Of a stretch of DNA of 64,000 nucleotides, positions 2,635-19,306 are shown one piece after another. Every line of letters starts with the position of its first letter. Position 1 is the stretch's first letter. The stretch is from Pseudomonadales bacterium (lineage in GTDB: Bacteria > Pseudomonadota > Gammaproteobacteria > Pseudomonadales > GM7GCV1). The stretch is from positions 114,453 to 178,452 of the forward strand of contig OZ244871.1 of the NCBI GenBank assembly GCA_965221105.1. The letters are read 5' to 3'. Under the pieces are notes generated by a model. That model worked only from the letters and a program-made list of their open reading frames with translations. It made no database searches and was not told where the DNA came from. The translations under genes were made by a program, and so were the position numbers.

Positions 2635-2809
2635 TCAGGAAACAAGAGTGTACCTACCAAATTCATCGAAGGGACTCGGGGTTCCACCAGATTGGGTCTG
2701 CTCTATATCGACGTTGTGACGGTCGGCGGGTGCCAGGGAAGGCGGGTTGCGGAATCGACTGCCTCATTCGCCGGCACGGGGGAGGATGTATCGGGGGGGG
2801 GTGCTTCAT
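2635..2809 (-). pseudogene. Frameshifted lasso-peptide-like RiPP precursor (reconstructed 58 aa)
   Basis: GGAG RBS, ATG 2809, C9 tract; two +1 corrections give ..RLPWHPPTVTTVDIEQTQ-SGGTPSPFDEFGRYTLVS* (WxxP leader, Thr-2, Asp9). Confidence 0.55.
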
Positions 2810-2877
2810 TGGGGTCGTCTCCAAGTACAATTGGATTAAGTATTCTATGAGACTGGCCGCCAAAAGAGAAGTGTGAA

Positions 2878-2897
2878 TTTCAATGTGAGACACTACT
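2878..2897 (-). repeat. Degenerate copy of the cassette terminal inverted repeat
   Basis: TTTCAATGTGAGACACTACT is 17/20 identical to the reverse complement of the left IR at 17832. Confidence 0.65.
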
Positions 2898-3842
2898 GAC
2901 TGGGGTGTCTGCGAAGAGGGGATACAGTGCCAGGGCGCTTCACACCTCACCGTTGCCAGTGACGCGCTGCCCTGAGGCTCCCGTGAGCTGTACAACGGGT
3001 TCTCCTCAGGGTCAACCGTGCAGAACCATTCCTTGAACAGCTGTGGGCTTCATACATTCGTACCACATTGCCCGTCTCACGGGGCACTCCGAATGGCTCA
3101 TGTACGTCGAGCCGACGGGATGGTTTTCTGTCTCCCTCATCCACGGGAGCGCTGCTTACGCAGCCAAGGGCATCTACAGTGTTTCAGTGACATGACCTGT
3201 GATGTCATGTGATGGCTCAGTTGATGAGTGCTGAGGTCTCTCCTGTCAGGTTTTACTACTGTAGGCTCCTTCGATCCTTTCGGGTTTTCTGTCGAGACTG
3301 ACCCCTGCATGGCGCCGTTGTACCCCTGACGGCTGGGGGAGAGATCTCAGAAGGTGTGTTGACCAACCTTCTGAGTGCCTGTGCATCCTACCCTGAGGTA
3401 TTGGATTTAAAGGCCATGTGCTGTGCGCCCTCTCGTCGCACCTCTATGCTGTCAGAGATGATGAGTCCCTCTCGAACATAGCACTTCGCCGGGGTGTCAG
3501 TGTGCGTCGGCTGGCGCAATTGAACGATGTGACCGGCGCGTCAGTGATTGAACCAGGACAGGTGCTGATACTGGGTACCGAGTTCTTTGACTCAGAAACA
3601 CCCTTTACCGTCACGCCAGGAGACTCTCTTTTTCTGTGGTCACGGCACGACCCAACGGTGCTGCCTCAGAGCTTGCTTTCACGCTGGGACAGCCTGACCA
3701 GAACTGAGATCACCCATCCAAGGCCAGGTTCTCCGGGAAAGTACGCCTCAAGCTGAACGAGAGTGGTCGCTTACGGAAAATCCGTCACGGTGTCCTACCT
3801 GGAAGCGGCCACCCGGCGTTCTTGCCATGAATCTGAGCGCGC

Positions 3843-4067
3843 TCAGCTGTCGTCACCCTCAGAATCTTCCTCAGCATCATCTTCTTCGGCTGAGGACTCT
3901 TCATCTGTTGCCTCCATCTCCATATCCATCTCCATCTCCATATCCATCTCCATTTCCATCTCCATTTCGGCGGAATCTGAGTCGGCTTCGCCTTCAGCCG
4001 CACTCAGTGGCATGGATATTAAAGCTGCAAGCAGCAGGAACAATTGCAGTAACGCTGTGATTTTCAT
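3843..4067 (-). CDS. Small exported acidic Met-rich protein (74 aa) with (M-E/D)9 repeat
   Basis: GAGGAG RBS, ATG 4067, hydrophobic signal peptide ending LSA-A; mature part lacks K/R. Confidence 0.75.
   Translation of the reverse strand: MKITALLQLFLLLAALISMPLSAAEGEADSDSAEMEMEMEMDMEMEMDMEMEATDEESSAEEDDAEEDSEGDDS
3912..3965 (-). repeat. Nine tandem ATGGAN hexamers coding (ME/MD)9
   Basis: Plus strand NTCCAT x9. Confidence 0.9.
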
Positions 4068-4146
4068 GAAGTCACTCCTCGTGAACATTGGGTTGTTTTC
4101 CGTATCGGCCGAAAAAGGCCCGACCGAATCTGATTCTAACAGGCTA

Positions 4147-4869
4147 TCAATAAGTTGCAATCTCTCTTTGAATATCGTTGACCACCGCTGCCGGGTCCTT
4201 GGCCTGGGTAATGGGCCGCCCCACTACAAGGAAATCGCTGCCCCAGGCAATTGCCTGGGCAGGAGTCACAATGCGCAGTTGATCGCCGGACTCAGAACCT
4301 GCCGGACGAACCCCAGGTGTGACCGTCGCAAAGTCTTCACCACATGCCGCCTTGAGTGCCGCAGCTTCACGAGCCGAACACACTGCACCATCCAGCCCGG
4401 CCTGGGCAGCCAGCTGAGCGAGATGTACGACCTGGTCTTCCACTGAACCTGAAATCCCAAGACCATGAAGATCAGATGTCCCCATACTGGTTAACAGTGT
4501 CACCGCAATCAGCAGTGGACGTTTTTCTGGATGTACCTGATCGAGAGCAGCACGAGCAGCGCGCATCATGTCCAAACCCCCCAAGGCATGCACGTTCAGC
4601 ATCCATAAATCCATCTCGGATGCAGCCAGAACAGCTCCGGCTACGGTGTTGGGAATATCGTGAAATTTGAGATCAAGAAATACGCCAAAGCCCATGTCGA
4701 TGAGCCGCCTGACAACTGTCGGTCCCGAACTGGTGAAGAGTTCCTTACCCACTTTGACCTGGCAACTGCCAGGGTCGAGGCGGCTGGCCATATCAATTGC
4801 CTGCTGCTCACCCGGATAATCCAGTGCGACGATCAGCCGCCCGGCACGATGGGAATCAATCGCTCTCAC
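4147..4869 (-). CDS. pyrF: Orotidine-5'-phosphate decarboxylase
   Basis: LIVALD, VKVGKELF, FLDLKFHDIPNTV, VVGRPIT. Confidence 0.97.
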   Translation of the reverse strand: MRAIDSHRAGRLIVALDYPGEQQAIDMASRLDPGSCQVKVGKELFTSSGPTVVRRLIDMGFGVFLDLKFHDIPNTVAGAVLAASEMDLWMLNVHALGGLDMMRAARAALDQVHPEKRPLLIAVTLLTSMGTSDLHGLGISGSVEDQVVHLAQLAAQAGLDGAVCSAREAAALKAACGEDFATVTPGVRPAGSESGDQLRIVTPAQAIAWGSDFLVVGRPITQAKDPAAVVNDIQREIATY

Positions 4870-4870
4870 T

Positions 4871-6052
4871 CTACCCGTTCAAATTCAAATGAAAGCGTGA
4901 TCTGAGCGTCTCCCAACGCCGGCAGCTCGGACATTGCCAGTGATATTCGCGTGCTTCATATCCGCAGTGGTGACACTGATAGAATTCCGGCATACCTATG
5001 TCTTCATGCGGAGAACCTACCATGCTGATGTCCACATGGGCAACAAGACGCTCGTCGAGCCCTGAAACGAGACGAACCGGCATATTTCCGATACCCTTGG
5101 GCCGCCTCTCTTCGAACAGCTGGACCAACCTGCCCTGCTGACGCTCCTCGCCCAGCTTTTTTGCAAGCAGAACCAGTATATGTCCTGAACCCGTCCGCCT
5201 GTATGCGGCTTCGAGCACACCCAGAAATTCCTCTTTGTGCCCGGTCGCCGTGCACACCTCCTCCAGCAAAGTCAACGCACCAGCCATGGGTTCTGCTGAA
5301 TCATGAATATGGTTTTCCAGAATCTCCCGTGCCCGTTCAGGGTGGTCGAGCATGAACTCAAGCGATGCCATCAAGAGCTGGGGGCGACGATTGGGTGAGC
5401 TCACCTGCTTGGCTTGCCTGATGAAGCGGTGCGCAGTCAAATAGTCCTTATTGGACAGGGCAACTTCAGCCTGCTCACAGTAAAAATGACTGCACCGGTG
5501 GGCAATCAGCTCCTGTTCCTGTTTATCTATATGCCCGCTCAGCTCCTTGGCCGCATAGGATGCTTTGAGCCATTCACGTTCGATCTGATAGAGATCAATC
5601 AGCAGATACAACGCTGGAATACGGTGTGAACCGGATTTTTCCACCAACTCCTGAAGGTGCTCCTCTGCGCGATCCATCAACCCCGCCTTACTGTAATCCA
5701 GTGCCAGCTCGAACCTGGCCTGGGAAATCTGTTTGTCAGACAGTCCGTCGCGACGTATCAGATTCTCATGGATGCGTATTGCACGCTCCAGCTCACCTCT
5801 GCGACGATGCAGGGCACCCAGTGTAAAGTGAGTTTCCAGGGTATCGCTGTTGACATCAAGTGCAGAGATAAAGGCATCGAGTGCATAATCCGGGAGGTCA
5901 GTGGTGACATGTGCGGTCAGCTTTTGATTTTCGAATAGCACCGGCCAATTTCTGTATTTCCTGGGGCTGTCGCGAAACTGCCAACGGGCCAGCACCCAGC
6001 CGGAGGCGACTGCCAGAAGCAACATGAGGTAGAGAAAAATATCTGCGGTCAT
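4871..6052 (-). CDS. lapB: LPS assembly protein B (TPR + rubredoxin-like)
   Basis: N-terminal TM helix, RRRGELERAIRIH, C-terminal CHHC..WQCPSC; lapA-lapB-pyrF synteny. Confidence 0.88.
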   Translation of the reverse strand: MTADIFLYLMLLLAVASGWVLARWQFRDSPRKYRNWPVLFENQKLTAHVTTDLPDYALDAFISALDVNSDTLETHFTLGALHRRRGELERAIRIHENLIRRDGLSDKQISQARFELALDYSKAGLMDRAEEHLQELVEKSGSHRIPALYLLIDLYQIEREWLKASYAAKELSGHIDKQEQELIAHRCSHFYCEQAEVALSNKDYLTAHRFIRQAKQVSSPNRRPQLLMASLEFMLDHPERAREILENHIHDSAEPMAGALTLLEEVCTATGHKEEFLGVLEAAYRRTGSGHILVLLAKKLGEERQQGRLVQLFEERRPKGIGNMPVRLVSGLDERLVAHVDISMVGSPHEDIGMPEFYQCHHCGYEAREYHWQCPSCRRWETLRSRFHLNLNG

Positions 6053-6058
6053 GGGATT

Positions 6059-6343
6059 CTAAGACACCTGAGTGTCGGTACTCTTTTCAGCGCAACGCAT
6101 AGCCGCTTTGTGAGCGCGGCTCAGCCTGAATTTATAGGCCAGAATCAAAGGATAGGAGGCCACCAGGGACAGCAGCACACCAGTGACCAGACCCAGAATA
6201 AAGACGCCCCCCACACTCAGGGTTCGGCTTCCCGCCAAAAAGCTGAATTCGACCAATTGCTCATTCGCGGTCAGGAAAACAAGTCCAACTACAAATACAA
6301 AGATACAGGACAGCAGGAGGAGAATTCGTTTCAGCCAAAGCAT
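6059..6343 (-). CDS. lapA: LPS assembly protein A
   Basis: Two TM helices with N.Q.V.F.FL loop; between ihfB and lapB; start uncertain. Confidence 0.75.
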   Translation of the reverse strand: MLWLKRILLLLSCIFVFVVGLVFLTANEQLVEFSFLAGSRTLSVGGVFILGLVTGVLLSLVASYPLILAYKFRLSRAHKAAMRCAEKSTDTQVS

Positions 6344-6475
6344 GGAAAATGCCCGCATTTCCAGGGGGAACGGAAGCTCTGGTAGCTTCCATCCAGAGAG
6401 AATCAGCAGACTTTATGATAATCCATTGAAAACGAAATGTCTCTTCCAATTGGACTCCGGAGAGAGGACATGCAG

Positions 6476-6754
6476 TCAGTCGTTTACTCGGCTGCGCAAT
6501 TCCTTGCCAGGCTTGAAATGCGGCACATATTTGCCATTGAGTTTGACCGAATCACCGGTTTTCGGGTTTCGCCCGACTCGCGGAGCCCGATAGTGCAAAC
6601 TAAAACTGCCAAAGCCCCTGATCTCAATACGCTGACCGCGGGCGAGTTGCTCAGACATCATTTCGAGAATGCTTTTCACAGCAAAATCAACATCACGGGC
6701 TTGCAGTTGATCCTGCTTGAAGGCTATTCGATCAATGAGTTCTGATTTAGTCAT
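6476..6754 (-). CDS. ihfB: Integration host factor beta
   Basis: [42 protein letters not shown]. Confidence 0.97.
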
Positions 6755-6899
6755 CGGTCTACTCTAACTCAAACAATTCCCTGTGCGCCAGACACACTAT
6801 AATGATGCATGCGCTGAATGAACTGAAACACCTCAGTTTTTTCGAAGGGAACGCGCTTCGCACGGGTCTACAACCAGTTCTTCTGCCAGGCAGGCCCAA

Positions 6900-8582
6900 C
6901 TAGCGATCCGTGTTTTCCATTTGCGCCTTGATCAGGTCACCCAGCGAAGCTGGCGCGGCATTTTCCGCTTCGGACTTGCGGTGTTTACGAATGGCGTCTT
7001 TTTCTTCATCAGCTTCACGAGCCTTGATGGAGAGAATCAGGCCGCGATTCTTGCGGTCAATGGAGACAATTTTCACTTCAACTTCATCGCCAACATTGAG
7101 TACATTACGTGCGTCTCCAACTTTCTCCCGACTGATATCGGAGGCTTTGAGAGTACCTTCAATGTCCTCTGCCAGCGTAATGATTGCCGCTTTTGCATCG
7201 ACTTCCTTGACAATACCTGTGACGATCGATCCCTTGTCATGTGCGCGCACGTAGTCAGAGAATGGGTCATCCGACAGCTGCTTGATGCCCAGAGAAATGC
7301 GCTCACGCTCGGCATCAATTGCCAGAATAAGGGCCTCGATTTCTTCACCTTTCCTGAATTTGCGGACCGCTTCTTCACCAGCTTCCTGCCAGGAGAGGTC
7401 GGAAAGGTGAACAAGACCATCAATATTGCCGTCCAAGCCAATAAAGATACCGAAATCAGTGATGGACTTGATACTGCCTGTGACCTTGTCACCTTTGGAG
7501 TGCTTCTCTGAAAACGCTTCCCAGGGGTTTTGAAAGCACTGCTTGATCCCCAGAGATACACGACGGCGTTCCGCATCAATATCCAGAATCATAACCTCGA
7601 CTTCATCGCCAATCTGAACAACTTTGGACGGATGAATATTCTTGTTGGTCCAGTCCATCTCTGACACATGTACCAGGCCCTCGATTCCATCTTCCAGTTC
7701 GGCAAAGCACCCGTAGTCAGTAAGGTTCGTCACACGGGCTTTCACCTTGGTACCTTCGGGGTAGCGGTCAGACACTGCCACCCAGGGATCGTCACCCATC
7801 TGCTTGAGGCCAAGTGACACGCGATTCCGCTCGCGGTCAAACTTGAGAACACGGACATCAAGTTCCTGTCCGATCTCGATCATTTCGGAAGGATGCTTGA
7901 TTCGTTTCCAGGCCATATCCGTGATGTGCAGAAGTCCATCGATCCCACCCAGATCAACAAAGGCTCCGTAGTCAGTGAGATTCTTGACAATGCCTTTGAC
8001 AACAACACCTTCTTCCAGCGAGGCGAGCAGTGCTTCACGCTCTTCACTGTTGACACTTTCAAGCACGGCACGGCGAGATACCACCACGTTGTTGCGTTTT
8101 TGGTCGAGCTTGATGAGCTTGAATTCCAGCGACTGCCCTTCCAGATGGGTTGCTTCGCGGGTTGGACGAACATCCACCAGCGACCCTGGAAGGAAGGCCC
8201 GCACGCCACGAATATCGACGGTAAAGCCACCTTTGACCTTGCCTGTAATCAGACCAGAAACCACATCTTCACCATTATGGGCTTTCTCAAGGTCCGCCCA
8301 TGTTTCAATGCGCTGAGCTTTTTCACGAGAGAGACGGGTCAGACCAAAACCGTCTTCCACGGCTTCAAGGGCAACCTGAACCTCGTCGCCTACGGTGACG
8401 GCGACTTCGCCCTCTTCACTGACAAACTGGTTGACGGGAATAATGCCCTCAGACTTAAGACCTGCGTGAACAGTGACCCAATCCTGATCAATATCAATAA
8501 CGACACCGGTTACGATCGAACCGGGTTTCATTTCTACGGTTTTTAGACTCTCTTCAAAGAGTTCTGCAAAGCTTTCATTCAT
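6900..8582 (-). CDS. rpsA: 30S ribosomal protein S1
   Basis: [13 protein letters not shown] start; repeated S1 domains. Confidence 0.98.
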
Positions 8583-8796
8583 GGAGGTACACCTGCACCT
8601 GCGGGGGGCTTGGCACGGGCCGGCAGTTCAGGCCGGGTGACATCACCAAAGCTGACCCCACCACCCTGTCAGTCAGTGGTCCGGTTCAATCAAGCGATCT
8701 GAGTCCCTGTGCTGACGGATTTTCAGATCACTGCCAGTCGAGTGCTGAGGCCAGCCCGATCAAGAAACCCTGGCGTACGTGACGGCATGAACTGGT

Positions 8797-9639
8797 TCAG
8801 GTATTGACCTGTTTCCAGAGGTTCACAGCCTGTTCAAGCACCTCATCAATCGACATATTCGTAGAATCAATCTGGATTGCGTCTGCTGCAGGGTGAAGCG
8901 GGCTTGCTTTCCGGCTTCGATCACGCTCATCGCGCAATTCGATGTCTTGTACGAGGGCACGCAGCCTATCACCCCTGTCAAACTCATTCAAGTCCTTGTT
9001 TATCAATCGGTTAGCGCGATGCTCGGTCGATCTTTCGGCCTTTTTTTCCGCCAGCCCGTCAAGCTGCTCAAGTCGCCGCCTGGCTCGCTCTTGAGCAGAT
9101 GCGGTCAGAAAGATTTTGAGTCGTGCCTCCGGAAACACAGCGGTCCCCATGTCCCTGCCATCGGCAACCAGCCCGGGGCCATCAGCGCAGGCCCGCTGGG
9201 ATTCCAGGAGTTCGGCCCTGACCTCAGGGACTGCTGCCAGTTCCGAAGCCAGTGCTGCTATGTTCTCCTGACGCAGTTCAGACGACAGGTCTTCGCCGTT
9301 GAGGAGCACCGCTCCATCTTCGAAACTGAGCGTGGTATCGCGTACCACTGACAGGAATTCGTCCACTTTTGAGATGTCAATCCCACGCCGACGGGACAAA
9401 ACAGCGAGGGTTCGGTAGAGCGCTCCGCTGTCAAGGTACCTGAATCCAAGTCGCGCCGCGAGCATCTCTGCCAAAGTACCCTTCCCGGAGCCGCTGGGCC
9501 CATCAACACAAATTATCGGAACTGGTAATCGGTCGCGCAACTGAGGTGCTCCCTCTGCTGGTTCAGATTTCCCTGCAGAGGTTTGCACATCTTTTTTTTG
9601 CGGGATTCCTCCCGGGCTGCTTCCAGGTTCTGTGAGCAT
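8797..9639 (-). CDS. cmk: Cytidylate kinase with N-terminal extension and internal insertion
   Basis: DGPSGSGKGT, LDSGALYR, ADGRDMGT; TGATG overlap with aroA. Confidence 0.93.
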   Translation of the reverse strand: MLTEPGSSPGGIPQKKDVQTSAGKSEPAEGAPQLRDRLPVPIICVDGPSGSGKGTLAEMLAARLGFRYLDSGALYRTLAVLSRRRGIDISKVDEFLSVVRDTTLSFEDGAVLLNGEDLSSELRQENIAALASELAAVPEVRAELLESQRACADGPGLVADGRDMGTAVFPEARLKIFLTASAQERARRRLEQLDGLAEKKAERSTEHRANRLINKDLNEFDRGDRLRALVQDIELRDERDRSRKASPLHPAADAIQIDSTNMSIDEVLEQAVNLWKQVNT

Positions 9640-10967
9640 CACTGGTGCACCTCTATCTGCATTCCCAGTTGCTGTGCACTCTCAACAAAATTGGGAAACG
9701 AAGTCGCCACATTGTCGCAGTTCAGAATTTCAACCGGCCCGGCCGCACGAATTCCAGCGACCGCAAATGCCATGGCAATACGGTGGTCACCATGTGAACT
9801 GACACGTCCCTTGGTAAAAGCCACACCTGAAGCAACACCATGAATCTCAATACCATCATCCAGAACCTGGTGTCGAACTCCAAGAACACCCAGCCCTTCG
9901 GCCATTGCCTGGATTCTGTCGCTTTCCTTGACACGCAGTTCTTGAGCACCAGACAGACGTGTCCTTCCCTCTGCACAACTTGCTGCAATAAATAAAACAG
10001 GGAACTCATCAATCGCCAAAGGAACCAGTTTCTCGGGGATAGTGATGCCACTCAACCGGGATGAACGTGCGCGAACATCTGCAACCGGCTCTCCGCCCAC
10101 CGAGCGTTCATTTTCCAGAGTCAGATCCGCTCCCATCTGCCGGAGGATATGAATGACGCCATCACGAGTTGGGTTCATACCGACATGTCTGAGCACGACA
10201 TCAGCATTCTCGGCTATACAGGCCGCAACCATAAAGAAAGCAGCTGAGGAGATGTCCCCGGGGATATCAAGATCAGTGGCTGTCAGAATGCCGCCGCCGT
10301 GCAGGCTGATTCGGCTGTCTGCCCGTTCAACCGGGTACCCAAATGCACACAGCATGCGCTCGGTATGATCCCGGGTGGGCGCAGGCTCAATAACCGCTGT
10401 CTCGCCCTGGGCGTAGAGACCTGCCAGCAAAATGCTGGATTTGACCTGCGCACTGGCCATGGGCATAGGATACTCAATCCCCACCAGATGTTTACCACCT
10501 TTTATTTCAAGGGGAGGGCATCCTGCGCGAGCAGTGATAACCTGCGCGCCCATGAGCGAAAGCGGGGCTGCCACGCGCGACATGGGACGCCTGCTGAGAG
10601 ACTCATCACCAACAAGCATCGAATCAAATCCCTGTGCCGCCAGCACCCCCGCCAGAAGACGCATGGATGTCCCTGAGTTGCCCAGGTTCAGCGCTGCTTC
10701 AGGTGTGTTCAATCCGTGCAGGCCAACACCTTGAATCTCCAGTTCGCCTTCGACCGGATCGCTGATTTCAACCCCCATCGCACGAAACGCCGACAGCGTC
10801 GCCAGCACATCCTCTCCCTCGAGAAACCCGGAAACTCTTGTCCTGCCCACAGCGAGACTACCGAGCATAATGGCTCGGTGAGATATGGACTTGTCGCCAG
10901 CCACACGCACCCTGCCATCAAGCGTCGTCACGGTGCTTGAGATGAATCTCAGATTGGAAGCAGGCAT
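9639..10967 (-). CDS. aroA: EPSP synthase
   Basis: GDKSISHR, LGNSGTSMR, SAQVKS, ELRVKESDRI, DHRIAM. Confidence 0.97.
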   Translation of the reverse strand: MPASNLRFISSTVTTLDGRVRVAGDKSISHRAIMLGSLAVGRTRVSGFLEGEDVLATLSAFRAMGVEISDPVEGELEIQGVGLHGLNTPEAALNLGNSGTSMRLLAGVLAAQGFDSMLVGDESLSRRPMSRVAAPLSLMGAQVITARAGCPPLEIKGGKHLVGIEYPMPMASAQVKSSILLAGLYAQGETAVIEPAPTRDHTERMLCAFGYPVERADSRISLHGGGILTATDLDIPGDISSAAFFMVAACIAENADVVLRHVGMNPTRDGVIHILRQMGADLTLENERSVGGEPVADVRARSSRLSGITIPEKLVPLAIDEFPVLFIAASCAEGRTRLSGAQELRVKESDRIQAMAEGLGVLGVRHQVLDDGIEIHGVASGVAFTKGRVSSHGDHRIAMAFAVAGIRAAGPVEILNCDNVATSFPNFVESAQQLGMQIEVHQ

Positions 10968-10980
10968 GCGCAACGGGTGC

Positions 10981-11910
10981 TTACATCTGCGGAGTTACAG
11001 CTTTTGTGGACAGCGTATCTGGAGCCGTCTGATCGATGTCCCGATAACGTCTGCGCGCCGCCTGAGAGCGCCTGAGAATATCCTCAATCTGCTCTCCTGA
11101 ACCCTGCCTGATCAGTTCTCGAAGCTGTAGCAGGTGAGATTCAAAATTATCCAGTTGCCGAAGGAGTGCTGGCTGGTTGGCAAGAAATATGTCGCGCCAC
11201 ATCAGGGGGTCGGACTCGGCTATTCTCGTAAAATCCCGAAAGCCCCCGCCAGCGTAGCGGAATATCTCCGTTGTGGCGTCCAATGCCGCCAGTGAGTCCA
11301 CCAGTCCATAGGCCAGCAAATGAGGCAGGTGACTGGTTGCAGCAAGCACCTCATCATGATGTTCAGTGTCCATCAAATCTACCTGACTTCCCACTGCTTG
11401 CCACAACTTCGACACCAGCTGAATATCCTTCGCGGCATTGCAGGCCAGGGGCGTCAGGATGACTCGCCTGCCTTCAAACAGAGTGGAGCTGGCTGATTCG
11501 ATCCCGGTTTTTTCCGATCCGGCAATCGGATGACCTGGGACAAAGGGGACAGGGTCGCGGGACCAATAGTGCTCTGCAAGCTCAACCACACGTGCCTTGG
11601 TACTGCCGACATCGGTAAGAACGACACCCTCGGGCAGGGTATTGGCAAGAACGCTGAATATGTCGCCGTAGCTCCCAACCGGCACCGCCACAACAACCAG
11701 GTCTGAGCGTCTGAGTCTGGATACCCTGTCGGCGAGCTGGTCGTACGTGCAGGCGTGATCTGCAATACCCTTGTCTAATGCAATGTCGTTGGTTTCCGAG
11801 CGACGGTTCACCAGGCTGACGCTGGCAGCGATTCCATTGGCCTTGACCGCCCAGGCTAGACTGCCGCCGATAAGACCTGATCCCAGGACAACGAGATTCT
11901 CAAACAACAT
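10981..11910 (-). CDS. tyrA: Prephenate/arogenate dehydrogenase
   Basis: GSGLIGGS, TDVGSTK, GHPIAGSE, SHLPHL, GGGFRDFTRIA. Confidence 0.92.
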   Translation of the reverse strand: MLFENLVVLGSGLIGGSLAWAVKANGIAASVSLVNRRSETNDIALDKGIADHACTYDQLADRVSRLRRSDLVVVAVPVGSYGDIFSVLANTLPEGVVLTDVGSTKARVVELAEHYWSRDPVPFVPGHPIAGSEKTGIESASSTLFEGRRVILTPLACNAAKDIQLVSKLWQAVGSQVDLMDTEHHDEVLAATSHLPHLLAYGLVDSLAALDATTEIFRYAGGGFRDFTRIAESDPLMWRDIFLANQPALLRQLDNFESHLLQLRELIRQGSGEQIEDILRRSQAARRRYRDIDQTAPDTLSTKAVTPQM

Positions 11911-11918
11911 GGAGCTAC

Positions 11919-13010
11919 CTAGAGTGCCGCAATGGGGTATGAACCCAGTATTTTCAGCTCGCACCCAAGCCTGATAAGGCCGTCCAGCACTTCCTGAACC
12001 TCCGTTTCCTTGACATGTGCCGAAAAGTCCAGAAAAAACACATAGGTCCATTTCTGCGACGGTGAGGGCCTGGACTCCAGTCGGGTCAGATCTATCTGCC
12101 GATCCCTGAAGGGTTTCAAAAGTTCGAGCAGCGCACCCGGGCGATTGCGAACAGAGAGCATCAACGAAGTCTTGTCGCGACCACTGGGTTCAGTCAATTC
12201 CTTGCCAATAATCAGGAAACGCGTGGTGTTGTCCGGCCGATCCTCGATCTTTTCAGAGAGTATTGTCAGATTGTAGAGTTGAGCCGCAATGTCCCCAGCG
12301 ATAGCTGCACTGTTCCATTCGCTGCTAATACGCTTGGCAGCGTCTGCGTTGCTGTTGACAGCAAAGCGATCGACACCGGGATAGTTTTCCTCAAGCCATC
12401 GTCTGCACTGCGCGAAAGTCTGACTATGCGAGTAGATGCGCGTGATCTTTGCGGGGTCTGTGCTGCCAGCAATCATCAGATTATGGTGAATACGCTGCTC
12501 AACCTCGCCGACAATCTTCAAGTTGGAGTACATGAAGCTGTCGAGAGTGTGACTGACCACGCCTTCAGATGAATTTTCCACCGGCACCACACCGTAATCT
12601 GCCGCCCCGGCTTCAACCTCACGAAACACCTGGTCAATGGTCGACATGGGCCGCGCCAGAGAACTATGGCCAAAATGCTTGAGTGCCGCCTGCTGGGTAA
12701 AGGTCCCCTCTGGCCCGAGATAGGCAACACTTGTTGGGCGTTCGAGCGCCAGACAGGCCGACATGATCTCTCGAAACAGACGGGCAACTTCTTCATCGGA
12801 AAGAGGCCCCGTATTGAGTCCCATGATACGGGTCAGTACCTGAGCTTCACGCTCGGGACGGTAAAAAACAACCTCCTCACCCTGGTCGCCAATTTTGATT
12901 TCTGCAACATCCTGAGCCTTTTGTGCCCGCTCGTTGATGAGCTTGAGAATCTGTTCATCGAGGACATCGATCTGCTCACGAACAGCATCAAGCGACCTGT
13001 TACTGGTCAT
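11919..13010 (-). CDS. pheA: Chorismate mutase/prephenate dehydratase
   Basis: CM domain, [25 protein letters not shown] domain LESRPS; ATG overlaps the gyrA end. Confidence 0.96.
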
Positions 13011-15591
13011 GCTCAGCCCCGTTTCCGGCTTCTGCATGAGCTGCATCTTCAGTCTTCTCCTGGTCGCGTTCATCAATGCGTTCGGCAGCAATGAGGTGCG
13101 CCTCATCCTTGAGTCGAATCACCCGGACGCCCTGAGTGTTTCGGCTCATCACCGATATTTCGTCGGTCTTGGTTCGAACCAGGGTTCCTCCGTCGGTGAT
13201 CAGCATGATCTCATCACTCTCAAACACCTGAACAGCCCCAACCAGAGGGCCATTCCGTTCAGAGGTCTGCATGGCAATGACACCGCGCCCACCGCGTCCC
13301 TTCACGGGATATTCGTCAATCAGCGTCTGTTTTCCATAACCGTTCTGGCTGACAGTGAGTACCTTGCCGCCGTGCTCGGGGATTATCAGTGAGATCACCG
13401 AGCTGGTGGCGTCCAGGCGTATGCCCCGCACTCCGCGTGCGGTGCGCCCCATGGCCCGAACATCAGCTTCATCAAACCGCACCGCTTTCCCGGAATCCGC
13501 AAAAAGCATGACAGTACAATCGCCCTGTGTGATAGCGGTTCCAACCAGATGATCGCCCTCATCCAGTTCAACAGCGCGCAAGCCAGTAGTACGAGGCCGG
13601 GAAAAGGCAGAGAGCACTGTTTTCTTCACCGTTCCCTGAGCTGTCGCCATAAAGATATACCGATCATCGCTATATTCACTGACCGGAAGAATAGCTGTTA
13701 CCCGCTCATCCTCATCGAGCGGCAAAAGGTTCACCATAGGCCGCCCCCGGCTCTGCCGGGATGCCTCGGGAATCTGGTAGACCTTGAGCCAGTATACTTT
13801 GCCCATATCCGTAAAACAGAGGATGGTGTCGTGCGAGCTGGCTACCAGCAAATGATCGACCCAGTCTTCGTCCTTGAGATTGGTCGCTGACTTGCCCATA
13901 CCGCCACGACGCTGGGCCTGGTAATCTGCAAGGGGCTGGCTCTTCGCATAGCCCTGATGCGACAGCGTGACCACTCGGTCCTGTTCTGGGATCAGGTCTT
14001 CGTGGTTGAGATCCATCTGGCTGGCGACAATTTCCGTGCGGCGATCATCTCCGTAGGCATCACGAACCTCAATCAGCTCTTCCTGAATCACCTCAGTCAG
14101 CCGCTCGGTGTTCTCCAGTATTTCCAGGTACTCACCTATAGCTGACAACCTTTCCCGATATTCCTTGAGCAATTTTTCGTGCTCCAGTCCCGTCAGGCGA
14201 TGCAGACGCAATTCCAGAATGGCCTGAGCCTGCTCTGGTGACAGGAAGTACAGATCATCGCGCATCCCATACCTTGAATCGAGGCCCTCAGGGCGCGATG
14301 CGTCGGCCCCGGTCCGACCCAGCATTTCTGAGACATAACCAGGCTCCCAGCCCCGACTCAGCAGGGCCTCTTTGGCATCGGCAGGTGTTGACGAAGCCTT
14401 GATCAGGGCAATGACCGGATCAATGTTGGATATGGCGACCGCCAAGCCTTCGAGCAGATGGCCCCGCTCACGCGCCCTGCGCAGGAGGTACAGGGTACGC
14501 CGGGTGATTACTTCACGGCGATGCTGTACAAAGGCATCGAGGAGCTCACGCAGATTCAGGGTTTTCGGCTGACCATCGACCAACGCCACAGAGTTGATCC
14601 CGAACACTGTCTGCATCTGTGTCTGAGCGTAGAGATTGTTGAGCACGACATCGCCGGATTCGCCGCGCTTCATCTCTATCACGATGCGCAACCCATCCTT
14701 GTCAGACTCATCGCGCAACTCCGCAATACCTTCGATCTTCTTCTCTTTGACAAGCTCTGCAATCTTTTCAATCAGGCGTGCCTTGTTGACCTGATAGGGA
14801 ATCTCATGAACGATGATCGTGTCACGGCTGCTCTCCTCATCGTACCTAACCTCTGCACGGGCACGTACATAAATGCGTCCTCTGCCGGTACGGTAGGCCT
14901 CGACAATTCCTGCACGCCCATTGATGATGGCTGCAGTTGGAAAATCGGGTCCAGGAATGAGGCCCATCAGTTCCTCGATGCCAATCTCCTCGTTTTCAAT
15001 CACCGCCAGGCAGCCATTGACAACCTCGGTGAGATTGTGCGGCGGGATATTGGTTGCCATGCCAACCGCTATACCCGAGGAGCCGTTGACCAGAAGATTC
15101 GGAATCCGGTTTGGCAAAACATCTGGAATCAGCTCAGTTCCGTCGTAGTTTTCGACAAAATCGACCGTTTCCTTGTCCAGATCCGCCAGCAATTCATGGG
15201 CAATCCTGGCCATACGGATTTCTGTGTATCGCATGGCCGCAGCACCGTCACCATCTACGGAACCGAAGTTGCCCTGCCCATCCACCAGCATATAGCGCAA
15301 CGAGAACGGCTGCGCCATGCGGACAATGGTGTCGTACACGGCGGAATCACCATGAGGGTGATATTTACCGATGACATCACCCACCACTCGTGCCGACTTT
15401 TTGTACGGCCGGTTCCAGTCATTGTTCAGCTCATTCATTGCAAAAAGCACACGCCTGTGCACAGGCTTGAGCCCGTCGCGGACATCGGGCAGAGCTCTGC
15501 CAACAATGACACTCATGGCATAGTCCAGATAGGACTGCTGCAGCTCATCCTCGATATTGATCGGGAAAATTTCTCTTGCTATTTCACCCAT
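13000..15591 (-). CDS. gyrA: DNA gyrase subunit A
   Basis: [19 protein letters not shown], GyrA box QRRGGMG. Confidence 0.99.
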
Positions 15592-15936
15592 TTGGCGGGA
15601 GTTCCTCTGGTCACATGGACACCCTGTCCAGCGTACTCTGGAGCGACAAAGTGTGGGGTCTCTGTTACTCCTGCACGAATGGCTTCGACTGGCTATTATT
15701 TTTTCAGAAGCAGACTGCTCAACACGCGCAAAATTGTATCAAAACACGCGTAAAAGCCCAGTCAATTCGTGTCAGAATGAGGTAGCGAAATTGCCACCGG
15801 AGGGGCGCTGTACATGTACCAGCCACAATAGCACTGGTCACGGCAGACATAAAAAACCCGCCATCGGAACAGTGCCACCCCATACACCGCAAACCCAGGC
15901 ACGTCACAGTAGTGCGATGCTTATCACGCCTGCCTC

Positions 15937-15969
15937 ATAAAAGAACGCCCGGTGAAAACCGGGCGTTCT
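15937..15969 (-). terminator. Rho-independent terminator
   Basis: AGAACGCCCGGT-N4-ACCGGGCGTTCT 12-bp stem followed by a T-run on the minus strand. Confidence 0.8.
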
Positions 15970-15988
15970 GTGAGCAGATAGTCTGAGG

Positions 15989-16312
15989 TCATTCAGTGGC
16001 GTCTGCTTCAGCCGCTTCTTCCATGGGTTCGGCAGCTTCTTCATCCATCTCAGATTCGCCCTGTTCTGCCTCGTCCATTGCATCATCCATTGGCTCGTCC
16101 ATTGCATCATCCATCGCGTCCATTGGCTCGTCCATCGCCTCGTCCATCGCCTCGACCGCATCCTCTGACCCGGCAGGAGACATGTAGTCCATCTCCATGG
16201 TTTCAGCCGCCTGCGGGTCACTTTCAGGGGCCGATGCGGGTTCTTCCTGTGCGCAAGCTACAAGAAACACGGCACACAGGCCTCCGACTATCAGTTTGAT
16301 TTTGTTCAGCAT
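15989..16312 (-). CDS. Acidic Met-rich lipoprotein with MD(E/D)(A/P) repeats
   Basis: GAGGAG RBS; lipobox LVAC; 12 Met and no K/R in the mature part; own terminator. Confidence 0.8.
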   Translation of the reverse strand: MLNKIKLIVGGLCAVFLVACAQEEPASAPESDPQAAETMEMDYMSPAGSEDAVEAMDEAMDEPMDAMDDAMDEPMDDAMDEAEQGESEMDEEAAEPMEEAAEADATE

Positions 16313-16458
16313 GAGTCACTCCTCTTCATAATAGTGTTGTCTTGGGGGGAAGTAGTATAGCCTTTCACAAACCAAAATGCTCGGCTGGCCGGCTCGATGT
16401 GCGCCTGTTCATGAGCAGAGCGAGTGTACCAGGTGCGCAGACAGCCTGCGTCCACCAG

Positions 16459-17679
16459 CTAACCACTCCTGCCACGGGTTGCGGCGATACGCAATCGCAG
16501 GGCGTTGAGCTTTATAAAGCCTTCAGCGTCCGCCTGGTTGAACGCACCCTCATCTTCATCAAAGGTTGCTATCTGCTCATCAAACAGTGTGTCTTCGGAC
16601 TCACGGCCGACGACTATCACGTTACCCTTGTACAGCTTCAGGCGGACCCTGCCATTGACGGTCGACTGGGATTCGTCAATTGCAGATTGCAGAATACGTC
16701 GCTCCGGCGACCACCAGTAGCCGTTGTACACCAACCTGGCATAGCGTGGCATCAGGTCGTCCTTGAGATGCGCCACCTCTCGGTCCAGAGTGAGGGACTC
16801 GATGGCCCGATGCGCTTTGAGCAGAATGGTCCCACCGGGTGTCTCGTAACAACCCCGGGACTTCATGCCCACATAGCGATTCTCTACGAGGTCCAGACGG
16901 CCAATGCCATTGTCGCCACCCAGCCTGTTCAACCGCTCCAGCAAGGTTGCTGCAGAAAGGGACTCGCCATCGATACTGACGGGGTTGCCGCCTTCGAAGG
17001 CTATCTCAGTATAAGCTGGCTGGTCCGGAGCAGCTTCCGGAGATACACTCCAACGCCACATATCTTCTTTCGGTTCCCACCATGGGTCTTCGAGGTTGCC
17101 ACCTTCGTAGGAAATATGAAGCAGATTGGCGTCCATGGAGTATGGCGATTTTCTATCCGCACCGGCAAAGTCAACCGGAATACTGTGGGTATCGCAGTAT
17201 TCCATGAGCTTTTCGCGGGAATTCAGATCCCACTCGCGCCAGGGTGCTATGACCTGAATGCCGGGTTTGAGGGCATAGGCCCCCAGCTCAAAGCGCACCT
17301 GATCGTTCCCTTTGCCTGTGGCTCCATGAGAAATGGCGTCTGCACCAGTCTGGTCGGCAATTTCCACCAGGCGACGTGCAATCAGTGGACGTGCGATGGA
17401 CGTACCGAGAAGGTACTCACCTTCGTACACTGCATTTGCGCGAAACATTGGAAAGACATAGTTCGTTACGTAGTCTTCACGCAGGTCTTCTATATAGATT
17501 TCCTTAACGCCGAGGGCCTGAGCCTTGGCTCGCGCCAGCTCTACCTCCTCACCCTGCCCGATATCCGCAGTAAAGGTCACAACCTCTGCCTGATGATGAT
17601 CCTGCAACCAGCGCACGATAACAGACGTATCCAGCCCACCGGAATAGGCTAAAACGACTTTGTTCACTGTCATGGACAA
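16459..17679 (-). CDS. argG: Argininosuccinate synthase
   Basis: [34 protein letters not shown]. Confidence 0.98.
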
Positions 17680-17917
17680 TCACTCTGGAACAGGTTGTAC
17701 GGGGCGCACATTCTACACCATGGCCGGACACGCGTCGCCAGGAATATGACCGGCAGTTACTGGACGGAGCAATCTCATTTCAACTGATCAGGTACCGGCC
17801 CCAGCCAGAAATACAACCACTCCGGATGCGCGGTAGTGTCTCAGTTTGAAAATAATCCCATTCTGCCGGTTGAAACGGGTATACTGAGCGTAACATCGAT
17901 CTGCTTCGGAGAGAAAG

Positions 17918-18587
17918 ATGAAACAGTACCGTTACCCCCCCCCCCCCGCATAAGTTAATATATCCCCTGCTCCTGCTGCTGGCAGGGCTTGCGGCACCGG
18001 CCGCGGCGCAGACGACCGTCACCAGCAGCGGGCGAGACGGCCCCACCGCTTGTCTGGCTCAACAGGAGATCACTCCTGATAATGTCCCCATCACGAGTTT
18101 GTCTACGACCAGTGTGACCTTCACGAGACCGGCCGTAAATTGGAACCAATACGTCGCACGGCTCGGCGATGCGCCAGCACCTGCAAATGCCACTATGTCT
18201 GCCAATGTTTTCAATGCCCGTACAGGAGTGAATGTAAACGATTTTACTGGACCTATATCCCCTTCCACAATACAAATAAGCCGAAACCAATCCGTCTCTG
18301 GCCTGGCTGCGAAGACAAACTATTACATCGAAATTTCTGTGGATGATTCAGGACCTATCCCGAAACAGGTGTTTGCCAGACACTGCTTCATGACCGGCGG
18401 CTCCTACACCATATCGGCCAACCCCATCGCTTCAGGCCCAACGCAGGGGTCAACCGGGTGCTTCACGATCAGCCCCCTCACCCAGCAGGATGTGCGCAAC
18501 TGCTGGTGCGGGCGCAAGACTACCCTGCCCCTGTTCAGCTCCACCCAGGACAACACCGATTTCCTGAACAGGTGGGGGTGCCGATAG
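17918..18587 (+). CDS. Secreted Cys-rich FN3-like protein (about 222 aa), out of frame at a C13 tract
   Basis: GGAG RBS, ATG 17918; C12 would give MKQYRYPPPPHKLIYPLLLLLAGLAAPAAA-QTT.. in frame with ORF 18099-18587; 6 Cys; SGLAAKTNYYIEISV is FN3-like. Confidence 0.75.
17935..17947 (+). repeat. C13 homopolymer (slipped-strand contingency tract)
   Basis: 13 consecutive C starting at codon 6; the current length gives TAA at 17951. Confidence 0.9.
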
Positions 18588-18652
18588 CGGCCCGTGCCGG
18601 ACACAGGCAGGAGGCAGCCAGACCGTCCCTGTCGTTGCAGACCGCCGGAGCC

Positions 18653-18685
18653 GCCGTCGCCCGTCTTCAGAAGGTGGGCGACGGC
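18653..18685 (+). terminator. GC-rich hairpin downstream of the cassette cargo gene
   Basis: GCCGTCGCCC..GGGCGACGGC 10-bp stem; no clear U-tract. Confidence 0.45.
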
Positions 18686-19306
18686 AGGCGTATTCCTGGA
18701 TGTGCCGAAACCTCATCGACACAAACCTGCACGGAGATTTTCAAACTGGGCCACTACCGGATGCGCTGGCATCAGAACTTCGCGCATGTATCCAGTGTGC
18801 AGAACAGCCGGGCTGAAATTCCCCCTAATTCCCAAGATTGCAGATTCTCAAGAACACATGCTGGGGCGAGTAGTGAGCGCATAGCTTCGAATTAGGGTAC
18901 AATAAGACCCTGTTGGGAAAATCGGATTTGGGCTGTCGTCACCTGGAGCGGTACTTCCCGCTCGGGCTGTGCTTTCCAGCCAGAAGGATGAGGTCCTCTC
19001 GTTACATTCCGCTGCAGTGCGCGGCCCGAAGCTGCTCATATGCCGGTAGGTTTAATTGTAACTTTTTCTGAGGGCCGCCCCTGATGTCGTAAACGACATA
19101 GTCGCCAGGGGCGAGGCTGTGTCAAGCACTGCAATCTGTTATCCGTAGTGCACTACTTTAGAGTAACCCGTACCTCTAAAGCTCTAAACTTCGGCAGTTC
19201 ATTAAGCCATGTACCATCAGGCTACCGGGTAATTGGCAGGCCTCTTCTATTTCTATCGTACAATGAGAGCTGTTTCGCTGCCATTCGGCCTCCATCAAGG
19301 ACTCCC

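Follow-up and report, generated by a model that had tools for sequence, protein, structure and literature searches.

PMC6542083 counts mobile insertion cassettes (MICs) as transposable elements that depend on an active transposase supplied in trans, its cited example being MIC231 of Bacillus cereus (Chen et al. 1999). Tn3-type MICs with effector genes are described for Xanthomonas (PMC4337579) and a qnrS2 MIC for Aeromonas (PMC5444012). Genes that vary in phase through poly-G/C tracts are treated for Campylobacter, Neisseria, Haemophilus and Bordetella (PMC8355987, PMC5084427, PMC1891110). Here we describe elements that combine the two, found in a 64,000-nt stretch of a Pseudomonadales bacterium (assembly GCA_965221105.1, contig OZ244871.1, positions 114,453 to 178,452; hereafter the window) and across the genome, the single 2,769,150-bp contig that contains it. 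Two loci of the window, one at 17832-18758 (locus 1) and one running leftwards from 2897 (locus 2), are in our reading, to which we give a probability of roughly 0.8, transposase-less mobile insertion cassettes derived from an insertion sequence (IS) of the IS1 family that package slippage-switched genes for secreted proteins. This reading builds on the anatomy of the loci, their copy numbers, the IS1 affinity of their ends, the absence of a transposase inside them and their insertion footprints, and adds to these that the tracts would switch and that the cassettes would have been mobilised in trans.

The likeness to MICs lies in the inverted repeats of an IS or transposon as bounds, the lack of a transposase and the presence of one or more passenger genes. 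The cassettes described here have IS-type terminal repeats, no internal transposase, passenger genes and duplications of the parental length (8 bp). They differ from MICs in having an IS1-family parent, in reaching dozens of copies per genome across several bacterial classes, and in each being a full expression unit, with a poly-C tract that gates the cargo and at which 5′ modules and cargo are shuffled. With simple-sequence contingency loci they share a 5′ G/C tract that sets the frame of surface or secreted genes, present at many loci of which most are OFF. Those contingency loci, however, are fixed chromosomal genes of host-adapted pathogens, whereas here a subset sits in transposable cassettes that unrelated bacteria share, with putatively switching tracts of up to 31 nt. 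A third point of comparison is offered by the Correia elements of Neisseria, promoter-bearing MITEs (miniature inverted-repeat transposable elements) that are abundant, short, bounded by repeats and non-autonomous, and that bring expression signals to their insertion sites. A MITE contains no gene, whereas each cassette brings a complete one together with a switch and a hairpin. Our literature search found neither a MIC with a phase-variation switch nor transposable poly-C-gated cassettes across classes, within a coverage that was incomplete for subscription journals and supplements, and a prior description is possible.

Locus 1 is a 927-bp unit on the plus strand. Its left terminal inverted repeat, an IS1-family end (GGTAGTGTCTCAGTTTGAAA, 17832-17851), and its right one (GGTAGTGGCCCAGTTTGAAA, 18739-18758, minus strand) pair over 23 nt with 91% complementarity, and the 8-mers directly outside them (17824-17831 and 18759-18766) are perfect copies of a single target-site duplication, GGATGCGC. 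Inside the left end follow a -10-like hexamer, TATACT, at element nt 49 (17880-17885), which may serve as a promoter, and a GGAGAG ribosome binding site (RBS; 17908-17913) before an ATG at element nt 87 (17918-17920). Six codons past the ATG stands a tract of thirteen C (17935-17947), the proposed slippage switch, which is OFF at present: the ATG frame terminates as ...PPPPA* immediately 3′ of the tract, and the 212-aa cargo frame that follows (17949-18587) would be in register with the ATG only at C12 or C15. The cargo, a member of what we call family A, has a signal-peptide-like N-terminus, an FN3-like putative beta-sandwich core and a Cys-rich C-terminus. A GC-rich hairpin lies 3′ of the stop codon (18645-18690; folding of 18630-18738 gives -47.7 kcal/mol, z -2.9). 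The first-pass annotation of this DNA had placed a cassette here with a terminal repeat, TATACT 48-50 nt inside, a GGAG RBS, an ATG 86-88 nt inside and C13, and had called its gene out of frame; both statements stand.

The terminal repeat, the 20-mer GGTAGTGNCTCAGTTTGAAA, represents an IS1-family end. It has three matches in the window, where 0.06 would be expected and none of 100 shuffles attained three, and 37 in the genome at up to two mismatches, against none for a reversed-pattern control. At least 10 pairs of these ends bound complete units of 369-1379 bp, all without a transposase, and six of the ten have 8-bp target duplications, three perfect and three at 7/8. Nine of the ten hold one long open reading frame (ORF) each as cargo; eight of these ORFs encode family A and one an unrelated Cys-rich protein. 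About a dozen further copies are one-ended or interrupted, among them one split by a 1.85-kb IS; interrupted or truncated copies include locus 2 in the window and those at genome positions 1278601 and 431784. The earlier impression that the family comprised only two examples is thus mistaken. Two arrangements stand apart as side observations. At genome 280271-281594 cassettes of 947 bp and 369 bp lie head to tail with 8 bp between them, and this spacer agrees at 7/8 with the duplication of the first cassette, a hint that one may have inserted within or beside the other. The 1379-bp cassette at genome 431784-433162 has about 480 extra bases between its left repeat and the start of its gene, a G8 tract and no target duplication.

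Once aligned, the ends reveal one anatomy: the repeat comes first, then a TATAAT-like hexamer, TCGGAGAGAAAG-ATG and the leader codons; poly-C separates these from the signal peptide and the cargo, and the stop is followed by a GC hairpin and the second repeat. The block TCGGAGAGAAAGATGAAA, which covers the RBS and start region, is conserved in seven left ends of this genome, and in most copies other than locus 1 the hairpin is followed by a T run in a terminator-like manner (GGCGGCC..GGCCGCCTTTT). In 32 left ends, drawn from three genomes, the -10-like hexamer has its median position at nt 49, the ATG at nt 88 and the tract at nt 107; the hexamer matches TATAAT at 5/6 or better in 22 of the 32, and the tract measures 8-20 nt, followed in most by a signal peptide and a six-Cys FN3-like protein of about 200 aa. 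Other copies therefore retain the layout first noticed at the two window loci. The promoter that the chassis was supposed to supply fares less evenly: a -10-like hexamer near nt 49 is conserved, but a full sigma-70 promoter was not called by consensus scan.

An ORF with a marginal IS1 transposase match, on a short repeat-bounded contig from a genome of the same order, pointed to the parent. A tblastn search with that ORF found a 72-aa remnant of a transposase C-terminus in this genome (1881379-1881594), abutting a repeat at 1881606. The remnant itself is too short for scoring against PF03400, and at E<=1e-3 it has 1547 protein relatives, with identities reaching 84%; the full-length ones are about 295 aa long and have PF03400, and the named ones are all called 'IS1 family transposase'. 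Among 80 loci encoding this transposase in other genomes the repeat is present in 78, stands directly after the transposase stop in 52, and many are 1.5-3.2-kb units with 8-bp duplications and passenger ORFs. IS1-family members are described in ISfinder as having terminal repeats that start with GGT and duplications of 8-9 bp, and both the cassette ends and the transposase-carrying relatives fit this description. The relatives share with the cassettes the terminal repeat GGTAGTGG[CG]TCAGTTTGAA[AT] and the 8-bp duplications, and behind a -10-like hexamer they have a small first ORF that starts 39-127 nt from the left repeat. The putative promoter, the RBS and the ATG (about nt 88) of the cassettes therefore sit where the parent IS expresses its own first gene; the cassettes differ from this IS1 group in lacking the transposase and the small first ORF and in having a secreted-protein gene in their place. 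According to PMC3196728, the transposase of classical IS1 arises through a frameshift that links two ORFs, whereas that of the relatives found here is one open frame. The autonomous IS with the same ends whose existence had been presumed is thus an IS1-family element of other genomes.

Eight of the transposase carriers in other genomes (L037, L065, L083, L090, L094, L096, L104 and L076) have a shared first ORF of about 63-96 aa that starts ..RP.D.NQLAK.IV.. and contains a GG(L/I)KGG.ARA motif, and many carriers have varied passenger genes between it and the transposase. Other candidate parents were rejected. IS6 and ISL3 also make 8-bp duplications, and their families PF13610 and PF01610 have no match in the genome; IS1595, with the same duplication length, is represented by five fragmentary PF12762 matches with no matching repeats nearby; and the multi-copy IS of the genome (IS605/TnpB-like, IS66-, IS21-, IS630- and IS4/IS1634-like) have different ends. 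The genome is very rich in IS: a 1.3-kb TnpB-type element is present about 21 times and the 140-nt end of an IS66-type element recurs at more than 50 places, besides IS21-, IS630- and IS4/IS1634-like elements and fragmentary IS1595 transposases.

Among close relatives, three genomes of the same genus have no match to the repeat and seven others of the same family have one between them, and family A, with 19 matches here, has none in 20 relatives. The 86 family A homologues detected lie mostly on large contigs of other genomes, among which are metagenome-assembled genomes (MAGs) of an Arenicellales bacterium, a Candidatus Poriferihabitans sp. and a Paracoccaceae bacterium. These three unrelated MAGs have 86, 79 and 52 repeat matches, with controls of 0, and between one and about four open full-length transposase genes, each a single open frame. 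From these MAGs we took 20 two-ended units: a C9-C20 tract lies at nt 97-113 in 18 of them, and perfect 8-bp duplications flank 11. At least four kinds of cargo are represented, including family A, a second secreted family (family B) and a family of 268/284 aa; the remaining two units have unrelated cargo and no tract. Whole cassettes from these MAGs are 70-87% identical in DNA to copies of this genome. The same cassettes are present in different bacterial classes, and the perfect duplications in three of 10 units here and 11 of 20 there imply fairly recent insertion.

Locus 2 belongs to a second type of left end (type 2) and lies on the minus strand. Its terminal repeat, AGTAGTGTCTCACATTGAAA (2878-2897), matches at 17/20, and it is followed by a TAGAAT hexamer at element nt 51 (2842-2847), a GGAGAC RBS, an ATG at element nt 89 (2807-2809) and a C9 tract (2793-2801), the last three within 2793-2822; the gene is out of frame. 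The cargo, a short peptide of what we call family C, is decayed (2635-2792), with a conserved ..RLPWHPPTV.. leader-like part, a variable tail and an internal 1-nt frameshift, and among the seven family C paralogues compared this copy alone is broken internally. The cassette has no right repeat because it is truncated by the end of an IS66-type element (2431-2570), copies or fragments of which occur more than 50 times in the genome. It was inserted into a repeat (2898-3443), two paralogous copies of which, at genome 2479052 and 1729605, are uninterrupted at the insertion point and 90-92% identical, with homology reaching 135 nt past the junction. Both the layout proposed for this locus and its description as decayed hold. 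Further type-2 left ends lie at genome 659344, 2367076 and 2717229. The one at 2367076-2368300 stands before a family B gene whose tract has decayed to CCCCACCC and whose signal peptide starts at an in-frame internal ATG; it may be a 'locked-on' derivative.

Long G/C tracts are strongly over-represented in the genome: 35 of at least 12 nt are observed where about 0.8 would be expected, their length distribution is bimodal, and A/T runs reach 10 at most. The tracts stand 1-17 codons past start codons, most precede a signal-peptide-like segment, and the longest, in a family C gene, measures 31 nt. Two paralogues identical over 100 nt upstream and 400 nt downstream have tracts of 17 and 11, and a second pair, 100% identical upstream and 95% downstream, has tracts of 20 and 18. 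Such differences between otherwise identical paralogues imply that the DNA itself changes length; invariant tract lengths, which the first-pass annotation named as counting against it, are not what these paralogues show. Judged from assembled consensus sequence, the pattern would be the signature of slipped-strand contingency loci. Poly-C tracts of at least 12 nt are also frequent in one genome of the same genus and one of the same family; in the same-genus genome G002 (e.g. L141-L146) poly-C/G tracts of up to 30 adjoin runs of about 20 N and may be either real tracts at which the assembly broke or masked stretches, so that they carry no weight here.

The tract is also where homology between copies stops. 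One cargo occurs behind unrelated leaders (for example, upstream identity 0.49 and downstream 0.98), one leader with its tract occurs before unrelated cargo (upstream 1.0, downstream 0.58), and type-2 left ends are found with family C peptides, family A and family B. The 5′ module therefore behaves as a separable unit, and the notion of interchangeable cargo is borne out in both directions. This suggests that the tract may be the joint between 5′ module and cargo. A wider version of our reading would make poly-C both switch and joint, the common site at which recombination brings 5′ modules and cargo into new pairings, with a single master IS1 copy per genome spreading the products and co-resident unrelated bacteria sharing and exchanging a public library of secreted proteins, FN3-like and other small ones, whose expression is stochastic, in effect a transposon-borne contingency system between classes. 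We offer it tentatively, at somewhat less than even odds.

As to what is carried, family A proteins are about 205-235 aa long, with a hydrophobic N-terminus ending in an AxA-like motif and six conserved Cys, and an alignment of 11 paralogues shows them 21-60% identical to the window copy. That the cargo ORFs are open and the six Cys kept across these 11 paralogues implies purifying selection. Pfam and NCBIfam returned no match for the cargo proteins, neither to Pfam fn3 nor to any transposase family. An AlphaFold2 model built on the 11-sequence alignment has a predicted beta-sandwich core at about residues 45-155 (pLDDT 87-94), the Cys-rich tail not being modelled; the best Foldseek matches of the model have FN3 or Ig-like folds without exception, with E values of 1e-3 or weaker, its neighbours in the ESM Atlas are clusters of FN3 proteins (0.84), which serves as a lead only, and the family A profile matches multi-FN3 proteins repeat by repeat. 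The label 'FN3-like' given to this cargo at first sight is thus modestly favoured by model, structural neighbours and profile, with Pfam fn3 unmatched; it is reasonable, not established. Family A is small globally, with 181 representative clusters at E<=1e-3 among 1.84 billion.

Family B comprises about eight paralogues in this genome, secreted Cys proteins of about 195 aa with the leader MFSLKVQCDV, poly-C of 11-21, a conserved upstream region of their own and no terminal repeats (e.g. genome 97212, 274013, 525346, 589717, 1672508 and 2715960); in the Paracoccaceae MAG, family B lies inside IS1-type cassettes (L126, L134). Family C consists of 49-57-aa peptides with a conserved RKRPWHPPTVKTV-like segment, a hypervariable 20-aa tail, a tract of 9-31 and no evident signal peptide, at genome 456091, 749199, 750964, 1189031 and 2643718 and window 2635-2809. 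By its sequence it looks like a family of precursor peptides. A search of five other cassette-rich genomes with one 51-aa query did not find it, an empty result that carries no weight.

Lasso-peptide precursors have a core with Gly, Ala, Ser or Cys at position 1 and Asp or Glu at 7-9, preceded by Thr at -2. The suggestion that the locus 2 cargo is such a precursor is unsupported: by eye, an acidic residue stands at 7-9 after a ..TR| site in only two of the seven family C paralogues, the lasso protease family PF13471 has no match over cut-off in the genome, and the neighbours of the locus, a glyoxalase II-like hydrolase and a LysM protein, are unrelated to lasso biosynthesis.

Several results weigh against the reading of these loci as mobile, switching cassettes. 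No intact IS1 transposase was found in this genome, where PF03400 has 0 matches and the transposase query finds the 72-aa remnant only, nor in 199 other genomes of the order, which yielded one further remnant; mobility is therefore not current here unless a transposase arrives from outside, and trans-mobilisation in this genome would be historical or dependent on an incoming element. Four of the 10 two-ended units have no target duplication. Consensus scans called a -35/-10 pair at neither window left end, nor a canonical terminator for the hairpin of locus 1. The share of in-frame genes falls below the one-third expected at random: of 58 tracts in this genome (at least 8 nt, downstream ORF at least 45 aa) 14 are in frame, 42 out of frame with both wrong phases populated, and two without a start, which gives 14 of 56, and in the cassettes of other genomes three of 18 are in frame and 15 out. 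This excess of OFF copies could reflect decay or homopolymer miscalls instead of switching. Four sequencing runs (X1-X4; three samples, one study) consist of assembled contigs and hence give no within-sample tract lengths. Finally, in families B and C and elsewhere, many poly-C genes of this genome lack terminal repeats and have upstream regions peculiar to them, so that the switch belongs to a larger set of genes whose mobile portion is formed by the cassettes.

These repeat-less genes bear on the idea that the switch belongs to the cargo, in that families of poly-C secreted genes already present in this organism and its neighbours were in some cases captured by IS1 ends as passengers and the layout is the sum of the IS first-gene position and the genes' own 5′ ends. 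Families B, C and several others do have ATG, a few codons, poly-C and signal peptide without any terminal repeat, and the first ORF of the transposase carriers likewise lies 39-127 nt from the left repeat, so the spacing is generic to the IS. On the other hand, family B and the 268/284-aa family occur in two-ended cassettes of other genomes (L126, L134, L129), one family-B-like gene here retains a right repeat, and the same leader and tract are found on different cargo and the same cargo on different leaders, the 5′ module being separable. We consider this origin of the switch unlikely, if still a serious contender.

The OFF excess has a further possible meaning, since long homopolymers are slippage sites for RNA polymerase. 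The main action of poly-C might be to make RNA polymerase or the ribosome slip in a non-heritable way, which would give low, constant expression of the out-of-frame copies in every cell. In each of the three genomes the majority of copies are out of frame and yet keep ORFs open over about 200 codons, as one would expect if OFF copies were useful. The tract differences between otherwise identical paralogues, however, are changes at the level of DNA, and all three phases are populated, as DNA-level switching predicts. The two mechanisms do not exclude each other, and a mainly non-heritable role strikes us as improbable.

The most deflationary explanation is that the cassettes are dead relics, internally deleted IS copies with decaying pseudogenes, and that their tracts are assembly errors in homopolymers, devoid of biological function. 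The missing transposase, the several copies truncated or interrupted by other IS and the OFF excess would all suit it. We nevertheless regard it as very improbable, since the cargo ORFs are open with their six Cys kept over 11 paralogues, the 35 long tracts with their bimodal lengths compare with an expectation of about 0.8, perfect duplications remain in 3/10 and 11/20 units, and the position of the tract is constant in three independent assemblies. The C13 of locus 1, moreover, recurs in contigs of three further runs: a 14,633-nt contig (3365-17997) matches it with 0 differences in X1-X3, and the X4 contig has one unlocated gap. Contigs from these runs span both junctions of locus 1 (left, 3365-17997; right, 18548-19300), long contig cover being absent at about 17998-18010 and 18433-18547.

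The same runs provide side observations on the abundance of related sequence. The summed contig depth is 1,269-37,923 inside the cassette and 14-48 in flanking bins, a figure that includes contigs of other organisms and does not equal copy number; over window 17609-18742 contigs at 90% identity or more to the cassette interior sum to 30-800 times the depth of flanking single-copy DNA, and several contigs diverge right after the tract, leaving loose ends at 17947. From the high summed depth and the loose ends it follows that related cassettes are abundant in those samples. The genes on either side of locus 1 encode an argininosuccinate synthase and an amidohydrolase; in one same-genus genome their homologues are neighbours, separated by about 240 nt in which there is no cassette. 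The comparison with that genome extends to gene adjacency, its intergenic spacer being too diverged to align at the base level. Elsewhere in the window two TCCATC-type arrays with a period of 6-12 nt (3913-3968 and 16020-16163) lie within small minus-strand ORFs, each with similar plus-strand sequence just downstream (4070-4099 and 16314-16343).

Taken as mobile switching cassettes, the elements would work as follows. Units of about 0.75-1.0 kb bounded by 20-nt IS1-type repeats would duplicate 8 bp of target on insertion and would have been moved in trans by a full-length IS1-family element, of which other genomes have one to four and this one has the dead remnant. The left end would keep the first-gene signals of the parent IS (the hexamer near nt 49, the RBS and the ATG near nt 88), followed by 4-8 leader codons, a poly-C tract of 8-20 nt and the cargo, usually a signal peptide with a small secreted protein, and by a GC hairpin before the right repeat. 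Slipped-strand mispairing at the tract would move the start codon in and out of the cargo frame and so give a heritable ON/OFF state, most copies appearing OFF in the assembly, and the secreted FN3-like proteins may have a host or the cell surface as their place of action.

Accounts of contingency genes usually concern fixed loci in a small number of host-adapted pathogens, and MICs are usually presented as rare curiosities with ordinary passengers; here the two come together, since a genome may have dozens of cassettes of 0.9 kb, common to several bacterial classes, and every cassette is self-contained and has a putatively frame-switched gene whose product is secreted. The system is tractable, with one small transposase, 20-nt ends and a 100-nt expression and switch module. 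If both the switching and the trans-mobilisation are true, stochastic variation of the surface and secretome would be horizontally acquirable as a plug-in unit, and an IS family would be the delivery vehicle for a community-wide library of proteins that interact with hosts or the environment.

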